From the sequence record NC_001609.1: a stretch of DNA of 11,624 nt. One strand, given 5' to 3'. The notes under the pieces were generated by a model. The model made no database searches, was not told the origin of the DNA, and was given only the letters and a program-made list of their open reading frames with translations. Below are positions 9,133-11,624 of this stretch, piece after piece. The position numbers were made by a program, and so were the translations under genes. The stretch is from Enterobacteria phage P4. How positions within the stretch are numbered: position 1 is the first letter of the stretch; each line of letters opens with the position of its first letter.

Positions 9133-9150
9133 TGTTCAGGCTGTCTTACA
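9133..9150 (-). promoter_or_regulatory. TGT-N12-ACA dyad: Delta/Ogr-type activator site of the late leftward promoter PLL
   Basis: TGTTCAGGCTGTCTTACA at 9133-9150, the P2/P4 late-promoter activator dyad, about 100 bp upstream of the vis start in the leftward direction. Confidence 0.5.
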
Positions 9151-9492: not shown

Positions 9493-9510
9493 TGTGTCAG
9501 GGCTGGCACA
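9493..9510 (+). promoter_or_regulatory. TGT-N12-ACA dyad: Delta/Ogr-type activator site of the late rightward promoter Psid
   Basis: TGTGTCAGGGCTGGCACA at 9493-9510, about 75-90 bp upstream of the sid ATG, consistent with an activator site centred near -55. Confidence 0.55.
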
Positions 9511-9582
9511 TCTGCAATGCGTCGTGTTGTTGTCCGGTGTACGTCACAATTTTCTTAACCTGAAGTGACGAGGAGCCGGAAA

Positions 9583-10317
9583 ATGTCTGACCACACTATC
9601 CCTGAATATCTGCAACCCGCACTGGCACAACTGGAAAAGGCCAGAGCCGCCCATCTTGAGAACGCCCGCCTGATGGATGAGACCGTCACGGCCATTGAAC
9701 GGGCAGAGCAGGAAAAAAATGCGCTGGCGCAGGCCGACGGAAACGACGCTGACGACTGGCGCACGGCCTTTCGTGCAGCCGGTGGTGTCCTGAGCGACGA
9801 GCTGAAACAGCGCCACATTGAGCGCGTGGCACGCCGGGAGCTGGTACAGGAATATGACAATCTGGCCGTGGTGCTGAATTTCGAACGTGAACGCCTGAAA
9901 GGGGCGTGTGACAGCACGGCCACCGCCTACCGGAAGGCACATCATCACCTTCTGAGTCTGTATGCAGAGCATGAGCTGGAACACGCCCTGAATGAAACCT
10001 GTGAGGCGCTTGTCCGGGCAATGCATCTGAGCATTCTGGTACAGGAAAATCCGCTCGCCAACACCACCGGCCATCAGGGCTACGTCGCACCGGAAAAGGC
10101 TGTCATGCAGCAGGTGAAATCATCGCTGGAACAGAAAATTAAACAGATGCAAATCAGCCTCACCGGCGAGCCGGTTCTCCGGCTGACCGGACTGTCAGCG
10201 GCAACACTCCCGCACATGGATTATGAGGTGGCAGGCACACCGGCACAGCGCAAGGTGTGGCAGGACAAAATAGACCAGCAGGGAGCAGAGCTTAAGGCCA
10301 GAGGGCTGCTGTCATGA
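9583..10317 (+). CDS. sid: Sid, external scaffold / capsid size determination protein
   Basis: ORF track starts at GTG 9565, but the ATG at 9583 is preceded by AGGAG (9571-9575) and gives 244 aa (MSDHTIPEYL...), matching recalled Sid length. Helical, Ala/Glu/Leu-rich sequence. Confidence 0.85.
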   Translation: MSDHTIPEYLQPALAQLEKARAAHLENARLMDETVTAIERAEQEKNALAQADGNDADDWRTAFRAAGGVLSDELKQRHIERVARRELVQEYDNLAVVLNFERERLKGACDSTATAYRKAHHHLLSLYAEHELEHALNETCEALVRAMHLSILVQENPLANTTGHQGYVAPEKAVMQQVKSSLEQKIKQMQISLTGEPVLRLTGLSAATLPHMDYEVAGTPAQRKVWQDKIDQQGAELKARGLLS

Positions 10318-10814
10318 TTTACTGTCCGTCGTGTGGACATGTTGCTCACACCCGTCGCGCACATTTCATGGACGATGGCACCAAGATAATGATTGCACAG
10401 TGCCGGAATATTTATTGCTCTGCGACATTTGAAGCGAGTGAAAGCTTTTTCTCTGACAGTAAAGATTCAGGAATGGAATACATTTCAGGCAAACAGAGAT
10501 ACCGCGATTCACTGACGTCAGCCTCCTGCGGTATGAAACGCCCGAAAAGAATGCTTGTTACCGGATATTGTTGTCGGAGATGTAAAGGCCTTGCACTGTC
10601 AAGAACATCGCGGCGTCTGTCTCAGGAAGTCACCGAGCGTTTTTATGTGTGCACGGATCCGGGCTGTGGTCTGGTGTTTAAAACGCTTCAGACCATCAAC
10701 CGCTTCATTGTCCGCCCGGTCACGCCGGACGAACTGGCAGAACGCCTGCATGAAAAACAGGAACTGCCGCCAGTACGGTTAAAAACACAATCATATTCGC
10801 TGCGTCTGGAATGA
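10314..10814 (+). CDS. delta: Delta, late-gene transcriptional activator (tandem Ogr-like zinc fingers)
   Basis: 166-aa ORF; ATG overlaps the sid stop (ATGA). Two C-x2-C...C-x4-C zinc-finger units: CPSCGH...CRNIYC and CRRCKG...CTDPGC. Confidence 0.9.
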   Translation: MIYCPSCGHVAHTRRAHFMDDGTKIMIAQCRNIYCSATFEASESFFSDSKDSGMEYISGKQRYRDSLTSASCGMKRPKRMLVTGYCCRRCKGLALSRTSRRLSQEVTERFYVCTDPGCGLVFKTLQTINRFIVRPVTPDELAERLHEKQELPPVRLKTQSYSLRLE

Positions 10815-10887
10815 GGGCTGCCGGTTAACACCGGCCGTCGCCGCACACCGTATTTTTATTCTTCAGCATGATGAGAAAGAGATAACG

Positions 10888-11460
10888 ATGGAAAGCACAG
10901 CCTTACAGCAGGCCTTTGACACCTGTCAGAATAACAAAGCAGCATGGCTGCAACGCAAAAATGAGCTGGCAGCGGCCGAACAGGAATATCTGCGGCTTCT
11001 GTCAGGAGAAGGCAGAAACGTCAGTCGCCTGGACGAATTACGCAATATTATCGAAGTCAGAAAATGGCAGGTGAATCAGGCCGCCGGTCGTTATATTCGT
11101 TCGCATGAAGCCGTTCAGCACATCAGCATCCGCGACCGGCTGAATGATTTTATGCAGCAGCACGGCACAGCACTGGCGGCCGCACTGGCACCGGAGCTGA
11201 TGGGCTACAGTGAGCTGACGGCCATTGCCCGAAACTGTGCCATACAGCGTGCCACAGATGCCCTGCGTGAAGCCCTTCTGTCCTGGCTTGCGAAGGGTGA
11301 AAAAATTAATTATTCCGCACAGGATAGCGACATTTTAACGACCATCGGATTCAGGCCTGACGTGGCTTCGGTGGATGACAGCCGTGAAAAATTCACCCCT
11401 GCGCAGAACATGATTTTTTCGCGTAAAAGTGCGCAACTGGCATCACGTCAGTCAGTGTAA
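10888..11460 (+). CDS. psu: Psu, polarity suppression protein (Rho antagonist / capsid decoration)
   Basis: 190-aa ORF, last gene of the sid-delta-psu operon. Size and position match recalled P4 psu. Confidence 0.88.
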   Translation: MESTALQQAFDTCQNNKAAWLQRKNELAAAEQEYLRLLSGEGRNVSRLDELRNIIEVRKWQVNQAAGRYIRSHEAVQHISIRDRLNDFMQQHGTALAAALAPELMGYSELTAIARNCAIQRATDALREALLSWLAKGEKINYSAQDSDILTTIGFRPDVASVDDSREKFTPAQNMIFSRKSAQLASRQSV

Positions 11461-11490
11461 AATTCCCCGAAAATCCGCCCGTTTTTACTG

Positions 11491-11527
11491 AAAAAAGCCA
11501 TGCATCGATAAGGTGCATGGCTTTGCA
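11491..11527 (+). terminator. Candidate terminator hairpin downstream of psu
   Basis: GCCATGCA-(9-nt loop)-TGCATGGC at 11497-11521, flanked by A6 upstream and TTTG downstream. The U-tract is weak, so it may act bidirectionally or inefficiently. Confidence 0.4.
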
Positions 11528-11624
11528 TGCGTTTTCCTGCCTCATTTTCTGCAAACCGCGCCATTCCCGGCGCGGTCTGAGCGTGTCAGTGCAACTGCAT
11601 TAAAACCGCCCCGCAAAGCGGGCG

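Follow-up and report, generated by a model that had tools for sequence, protein, structure and literature searches.

Delta of satellite phage P4, a late activator with two Ogr-type zinc fingers related to separate genes of other satellites

The delta gene of P4 and the two units of its product

The window analysed here, a stretch of 11,624 bases of Enterobacteria phage P4 (NC_001609.1), contains the sid-delta-psu operon (PMC8628076, PMC7552001), and the present study is concerned with the product of its second gene, delta, and with the origin of the two domains of which this protein is made. All three genes lie on the plus strand. The sid gene (capsid size determination; 9583..10317) encodes 244 amino acids (aa) from the annotated ATG and ends with a TGA stop codon at 10315-10317; its open reading frame is listed as 250 aa when read from a GTG at 9565. 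The delta gene (10314..10814) starts with ATG and encodes 166 aa plus stop, as annotated in X02534, and psu, the third gene of the operon, occupies 10888..11460 (Pfam Psu, E value 1.3e-88). Bases 9500-11070, within a query spanning 9500-11624, are 99.6% identical at the nucleotide level to X02534.1 ('Bacteriophage P4 essential region'), in which sid (244 aa), delta (166 aa) and psu are annotated in this order, and the delta product of the window is 100% identical to the protein of the X02534 'delta gene (aa 1-166)'. The open reading frame at 10314-10814 is P4 delta, whose product transactivates the late promoters of P2 as well as those of P4 itself. Its complete product matches Pfam family PF04606 (Ogr_Delta) in two stretches with a total of 77.7 bits, and PHROG 603 ('transcriptional regulator') with an E value of 6e-67. 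The gene, its function, its family and the presence of two Ogr-like domains are established knowledge, the Pfam family being named after Delta.

Two complete Ogr-type C4 zinc-finger units make up the single chain of Delta. Cysteines are located at positions 4, 7, 30, 35, 72, 86, 87, 90, 113 and 118, and the motif C-x2-C-x22-C-x4-C occurs twice with identical spacing, at aa 4-35 and aa 87-118. Two C-x2-C...C-x4-C units in the 166-aa protein had already been noticed in a first-pass annotation made from the sequence, which found each of them to resemble a complete small Ogr-type activator. This assignment holds because each half by itself passes the PF04606 gathering cut-off of 26.3 bits: aa 1-75 score 44.6 bits (E value 1.3e-11; profile positions 2-43 of 47) and aa 76-166 score 43.4 bits (E value 3.3e-11; profile positions 2-47 of 47). 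The alignment of each half with P2 Ogr (sequence taken from NC_041848), which had been proposed as a check, gave Smith-Waterman scores of 117 for the N half (z 22) and 98 for the C half (z 18). With PSP3 Pag the corresponding scores were 96 and 129. Not one of the four scores was attained in 2000 shuffles, and the z scores of both halves in the comparisons with Ogr and Pag range from 18 to 24. The NCBIfam model NF007241, an equivalog of the 72-aa Ogr, likewise matches Delta in two stretches (45.5 and 42.1 bits for the halves). Since the total of 81.3 bits stays below the cut-off of 116, Delta is to be regarded as a member of the family and not as an Ogr orthologue. In a 16-sequence alignment (A2) the four cysteines and F39 are invariant, and judged from the motif each finger of Delta is predicted to bind one zinc.

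The N-type finger comprises aa 1-47 (10314..10454) with cysteines 4, 7, 30 and 35, and the C-type finger aa 84-135 (10563..10718) with cysteines 87, 90, 113 and 118. They are joined by a variable linker that is predicted to be disordered (aa 48-83; 10455..10562) and contains the presumed fusion point, the codon for Met74 (10533..10535), which aligns with the start codon of a separate second gene in relatives. The C-terminal tail (aa 136-166; 10719..10811), in which a helix is predicted at aa 138-148, ends in YSLRLE, and an ending in '..RLE' is common to Delta and to the last gene of the split arrays described below (P0032, P0037, P0040, P0051, P0093). An AlphaFold2 model of Delta (mean predicted local distance difference test score, pLDDT, 71; predicted template modelling score 0.56) is in line with this arrangement. 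Strands are predicted at aa 10-18, 24-30 and 38-46 of the N finger (pLDDT 82-85) and, in a matching pattern, at aa 93-101, 106-113 and 121-133 of the C finger (pLDDT 83-88), and the values drop to 41-61 in the linker, with less than 50 for aa 62-80.

The delta start codon (10314-10316) and the sid stop codon (10315-10317) overlap as ATGA at 10314..10317 on the plus strand, in agreement with the first-pass annotation. The same ATGA is present at the junction of the sid-like gene and the first delta gene in all eight lineages compared, that is, in P4 and in loci L004, L005, L006, L010, L014, L017 and L020. As the flanks of the junction have diverged extensively among these lineages, its retention supports selection for the overlap. 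A Shine-Dalgarno-like AGAGGG (10300..10305, plus strand) lies 8 nucleotides before the delta ATG within the end of sid, and most relatives have a purine-rich GGAGG, GGGG or GGGAG at a similar place, L020 showing a weak one only. Delta synthesis is probably coupled to sid translation via the conserved ATGA, with the AGAGGG as a putative aid. On the other side of delta, a potential hairpin in the spacer to psu (GCCGGT-TAAC-ACCGGC with a T-rich run; 10816-10838) had a folding energy no better than that of shuffled sequences (z -0.8).

Split, single and fused delta genes in related satellites

A word-indexed protein search retrieved close relatives of Delta only. When 1.84 billion cluster representatives were searched exhaustively with HMMER, small homologues came to light which, leaving aside fragments more than 80% identical to Delta, are single-domain proteins of 56-118 aa (most of them 60-98 aa). 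Each aligns to either aa 1-50 or aa 83-166 of Delta with 35-47% identity, and no diverged two-finger protein of Delta's size was found among the representatives. Four long proteins with multiple matching stretches (475-1054 aa) that also appeared in the HMMER listing were taken as unrelated repetitive zinc-finger proteins.

In related satellites the place of delta is filled in several ways, and the C-x2-C-x22-C-x4-C spacing is exact in every single or split delta product. Buttiauxella agrestis, Buttiauxella noackiae and Cedecea davisae (L005-L009) possess an N-type gene of 76 or 81 aa and a C-type gene of 88 aa with an overlap of 8 nucleotides. This pair comes after a sid-like gene of 246 aa (cut to about 155 aa in L005), and the neighbourhood in L006 includes a P4-like alpha primase, AlpA and an integrase. 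In Hafnia paralvei (L020-L022) an uncalled 59-aa gene precedes an 83-aa gene, and three consecutive Ogr_Delta genes of 62, 58-65 and 84 aa are found in Hafnia and Yersinia ruckeri (L010-L012, L017-L019). Klebsiella and Salmonella (L014-L016) have a lone 86-aa delta between sid and psu. The split arrays (L010-L012, 3093-3755; L017-L019, 3096-3755; L020-L022, 3313-3752; L005, 2664-3168; L006, 3778-4267) all sit behind a sid-like gene, and no psu follows them in the loci where arrays are seen whole. Some of their members are missed by gene finders, namely the 59-aa gene of L020-L022 and the middle gene of L019.

The DNA of P4 delta is colinear with the Buttiauxella-type pair, Met74 being placed opposite the ATG of the second gene (DNA alignment A1). 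The two genes of the pair are in different frames (..AATAATGGCTAAA..), and their 8-nucleotide overlap includes the start codon. At the protein level the N finger of Delta is 44-48% identical to the first gene of split pairs and triples; for the C finger, identity is 48-50% with the lone delta of L013 as well as with the second gene of Buttiauxella-type pairs. The same partition is seen in a neighbour-joining tree, in which 264 of 300 bootstraps place the P4 N finger with the first genes and 256 of 300 place the P4 C finger with the Buttiauxella-type second genes and the L013 lone delta; the two P4 fingers are sisters in none of the 300. N-type genes are kept as separate genes in several genera, with 19 invariant columns in alignment A5.

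The fused gene, for its part, was encountered in 925 of 5426 complete Escherichia coli genomes, always with at least 95% nucleotide identity, and no complete E. coli genome contains a split pair of the L006 type. A scan of species-representative genomes returned one delta locus only, a near-identical copy. With a C-type profile 79 loci were retrieved from IMG/VR, all 98-100% identical to P4 across the C half; 67 of them contain the exact 166-aa open reading frame, in another seven the same frame is listed from an earlier in-frame start, and one has a split P4-type delta. The 185-aa 'variant' suggested by the seven is an artefact of open reading frame listing: an upstream in-frame stop codon has been lost, and the ATGA start is unchanged.

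Inspection of E. coli delta variants (P0022, P0079, P0080, P0017, P0011, P0003) identified the linker as the fragile and tolerant part of delta. Frameshifts in the linker occur in many E. coli assemblies, where the N part ends in ..YRILLSEM* and a 93-aa C part starting at Met74 is left (P0011; 218 contigs), and 24 linker residues are missing in the natural variant P0003. The linker also differs between the window and other P4-type copies. Codons 72-73 (10527-10532) read TGCGGT (Cys-Gly) in the window and in X02534, and all 67 intact 166-aa copies from IMG/VR have Gly-Ser at this place (GGCAGT and variants), so that the additional cysteine in the linker is a peculiarity of the laboratory P4 sequence. 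Cys72 reflects either a mutation of the strain or an old error in sequencing.

Three further observations concern the related elements. L004 (URND01000141.1), whose delta is 97% identical to that of P4 and has P4-like neighbours, is labelled as an 'uncultured Clostridiales' metagenome-assembled genome and is most likely a mis-binned enterobacterial contig. The 81-aa E. coli protein P0074 has the P4 N finger unchanged as far as CSATF, followed by the tail of a single-domain delta of the Klebsiella/phiR73 type, a chimera which, as read from its sequence, indicates recombination inside the family at a conserved motif. Finally, the slot between delta or psu and the integrase of related satellites contains defence-like cargo, including a 499-aa reverse transcriptase and TIR, SEFIR and HD/HATPase proteins (L005, 3597-6188; L006, 4549-6048; L007, 1888-2805; L014, 4523-6022; L017, 4180-5625), in keeping with the defence hotspot already described for P4-like elements (PMC9122126).

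Divergence of the two fingers and origin of the fused gene

The similarity between the two halves of Delta is remote. BLASTP of the N half against the C half produced no alignment at E values up to 100, and the Smith-Waterman score of 26 compares with a shuffle mean of 22 +/- 3.6, with 304 of 2000 shuffles reaching 26. In an ungapped register of 50 residues 7 of 50 positions are identical (14%), four of these seven being cysteines. By contrast, hhalign of the N-type against the C-type alignment gave a probability of 91% (E value 1e-6) over 47 columns in perfect register at 15% identity. Homology of the halves is therefore detectable only via profiles or through Ogr. The first-pass annotation had called Delta internally duplicated and had proposed self-alignment of the halves as a check; the pairwise comparisons speak against that description, as does the placement of each half in its own clade together with separate genes. 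Its further suggestion that Delta resembles a covalent dimer of the helper's activator is correct in so far as two Ogr-type units are present in one chain, but in view of the clades these are best read as something other than two copies of present-day P2 Ogr.

The fingers have also retained different residues. Nine single-copy activators (P2 Ogr, PSP3 Pag, the Klebsiella-type delta and six others) served as reference, and 23 non-cysteine positions that are each kept in at least eight of the nine constitute the conserved set. Ten of the 23 are retained by the N finger alone (P5, H12, Y18, K24, Q29, N32, V33, S36, T38 and E43) and eight by the C finger alone (the [TS]-S pair at positions 15-16 of R-[TS]-S-R, S20, Y27, T41, V45, I49 and P52); five are retained by both, and there is no position that both have lost (Fisher exact p 0.003). 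Complementary loss of this kind is the pattern expected if the functions of an ancestral homo-oligomeric activator had been shared out between the fingers, so that each now needed the other. The partition of the conserved residues is largely the same in the split genes, which implies that the divergence predates the fused gene. Within the P4 clade, crude ratios of nonsynonymous to synonymous changes, based on small counts, are 0.15 and 0.17 for the fingers, compared with 0.25 in the linker and 0.63 in the tail, and the eight finger cysteines and both finger cores are preserved in 76 intact genes.

Taken together, P4 Delta is very probably a two-finger activator of the Ogr family whose fingers are old paralogues fused in frame and acting as a pseudo-heterodimer. 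In the most economical course of events, a gene was duplicated long ago, the copies diverged, and a recent in-frame fusion at Met74 joined them in the E. coli P4 lineage. A recent tandem duplication, in which a single Ogr-like gene was doubled within P4 and the copies then diverged, would account for the fact that both halves belong to the same family, have identical cysteine spacing and are in register at the profile level. It is nevertheless extremely improbable in view of the 14% identity between the halves, their failure to appear as sisters in any bootstrap, the 44-50% identical relatives that each half has among the separate genes of other satellites, and the residue partition which is common to these genes and must be older than the fusion. 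The opposite course, fission of an ancestral two-domain activator into the pairs and triples of Buttiauxella, Hafnia and Yersinia, is mechanically easy, as the recurrent linker frameshifts of E. coli with their N part and 93-aa Met74 part illustrate. Yet we consider it unlikely: the fused form was found in one tight clade only and was not met among diverged representatives, separate genes exist in several divergent lineages as arrays of two and three, and the genes of L005/L006-type pairs are in different frames with the start codon inside their overlap. Moreover, the single split copy among the 79 IMG/VR loci suggests that split P4-type copies are errors or pseudogenes.

A different question is whether both fingers are functional. 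If one were a decaying remnant, Delta would work like monomeric Ogr with a passenger domain, and it is true that the N finger is devoid of R-[TS]-S-R and R-[FY]-I-x-[KR]-P, motifs present in all single-copy activators, and that the C finger is devoid of CP, AH, QCxN and CSATF. However, the preservation of the eight cysteines and both cores, the equally low substitution ratios of the two fingers, the maintenance of N-type genes as separate genes in several genera, and the absence of any conserved position lost by both halves make a decaying finger very unlikely.

Several points weigh against the fusion of old paralogues into a pseudo-heterodimer, or at least call for caution. The direction, which we infer to be fusion and not fission, is argued from distribution only, and the frameshift copies of E. 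coli demonstrate that delta splits easily. The tree was built by neighbour joining from 50 ungapped core columns. The reference proteins used for the complementarity analysis were drawn from hits to Delta itself, which possibly introduces a bias, and the sample is small. The AlphaFold2 model is of moderate quality and was derived from a shallow alignment with almost no depth in the N half. Searches for a solved family structure to compare with yielded none: a sequence search of the Protein Data Bank (PDB) with Delta returned chance-level matches only (E values of at least 0.06) and Foldseek with the Delta model against the PDB gave nothing at E values up to 0.001, with a top TM-score of 0.23. 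Finally, zinc binding by Delta, its contacts with DNA and RNA polymerase and its heterodimer-like action are proposed on a computational basis.

Candidate late-promoter dyads, proposed mode of action and comparison with known systems

Ogr is a zinc-binding CX2CX22CX4C activator, and its site of action, TGT-N12-ACA, is the consensus shared by the P2 late promoters that depend on it (PMC3931495). The late genes of P2 and P4 are activated by P2 Ogr and likewise by its homologue Delta (PMC8628076, PMC7552001); P4 needs delta to transactivate the late genes of P2 (PMC12239096). Upstream of sid the window contains two exact matches to this consensus, a dyad TGTGTCAGGGCTGGCACA at 9493..9510, whose centre lies 81 bp before the sid ATG, and a second dyad TGTCCGGTGTACGTCACA at 9531..9548, 38 bp downstream of the first. 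A third exact dyad at 9133-9150, about 360 bp further upstream of sid, possibly belongs to the leftward late promoter. The number of exact dyads in the window is by itself not significant (5 versus 2.45 expected; 19 of 200 shuffles reach 5). Support comes from the position of the first dyad only: related satellites have one dyad at the same distance before the sid-like gene (81-83 bp to the ATG). The second exact dyad is present in the window, L001 and L004, that is, in the P4 clade only, and was not found in L006, L007 and L014; it may go with the fused activator. According to work of Julien and Calendar, which appeared in J Bacteriol in 1995, Delta reportedly leaves a footprint at about -55 at six target promoters, with a second site near -18 in Psid, and with such a second site the distance of 38 bp between the two dyads would be consistent. 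A later study (Julien, Lefevre and Calendar, Virology, 1997) is said to have found that both Ogr-like domains are required for activity. Genetics of rpoA109 and ogr52 points to the alpha subunit of RNA polymerase as the contact.

As each finger has lost a different subset of the conserved residues, the chain is most likely a covalent pseudo-heterodimer that would do the job of an Ogr dimer. We propose that the two fingers sit on the two half-sites of TGT-N12-ACA dyads, as the flexible linker of about 36 residues would permit. Positioned on dyads upstream of late promoters, Delta would recruit RNA polymerase and would thereby switch on its own operon, sid-delta-psu, as well as the late operons of the helper.

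Delta shares the PF04606 family and the C-x2-C-x22-C-x4-C motif of both its halves with P2 Ogr (72 aa), PSP3 Pag and 186 B, and the target consensus of P2 Ogr recurs upstream of P4 sid. Ogr has one domain, whereas Delta has two in one chain in addition to the 36-residue linker and the helical '...RLE' tail, and of the residues conserved in Ogr-type proteins each half of Delta has retained only some. The single-domain delta of Klebsiella and Salmonella (L014-L016), a group that also includes the phiR73-type delta (bioRxiv 10.1101/2022.11.09.515794), belongs to the same family and resembles P4 delta in operon position, in its ATGA overlap with sid and in having psu downstream. It differs in that its one 86-aa finger carries the full Ogr-like conserved set without an N/C division. 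The split arrays (L005-L012, L017-L022) are like Delta in the order kept after sid, in the N-type clade of the first gene and in the '..RLE' tail, and in L005/L006-type pairs the last gene is in the C-type clade and the pair is colinear with delta DNA. Unlike Delta, they specify separate polypeptides, from genes with the 8-nucleotide overlap or short spacers between them, sometimes with a third gene in the middle, and they lack an adjoining psu.

Modest computational additions to what is known of Delta are the gene pairs and triples, the presumed site of fusion at Met74, the finding of the fused form in an E. coli clade only and the complementary loss of residues; we did not find them in the searchable literature. 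It is tempting to speculate, albeit tentatively, that the late activator of many P4-like satellites is an obligate hetero-oligomer of two specialised Ogr paralogues (three in Hafnia and Yersinia), and not a homo-oligomer of a single Ogr-type protein, and that Delta is its single-chain version, formed by a recent in-frame fusion in the E. coli lineage. The ancestral residues would then be distributed among the paralogues, one keeping, for instance, the R-T-S-R and R-F-I-x-R-P surfaces and the other those of CP..AH and QCxN..CSATF. The annotation of satellites is affected as well, since arrays of two or three small genes, in part uncalled, are overlooked when each element is credited with 'one delta'. 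The series of split and fused genes represents natural material for studying how Ogr-type activators assemble on dyads and contact RNA polymerase.

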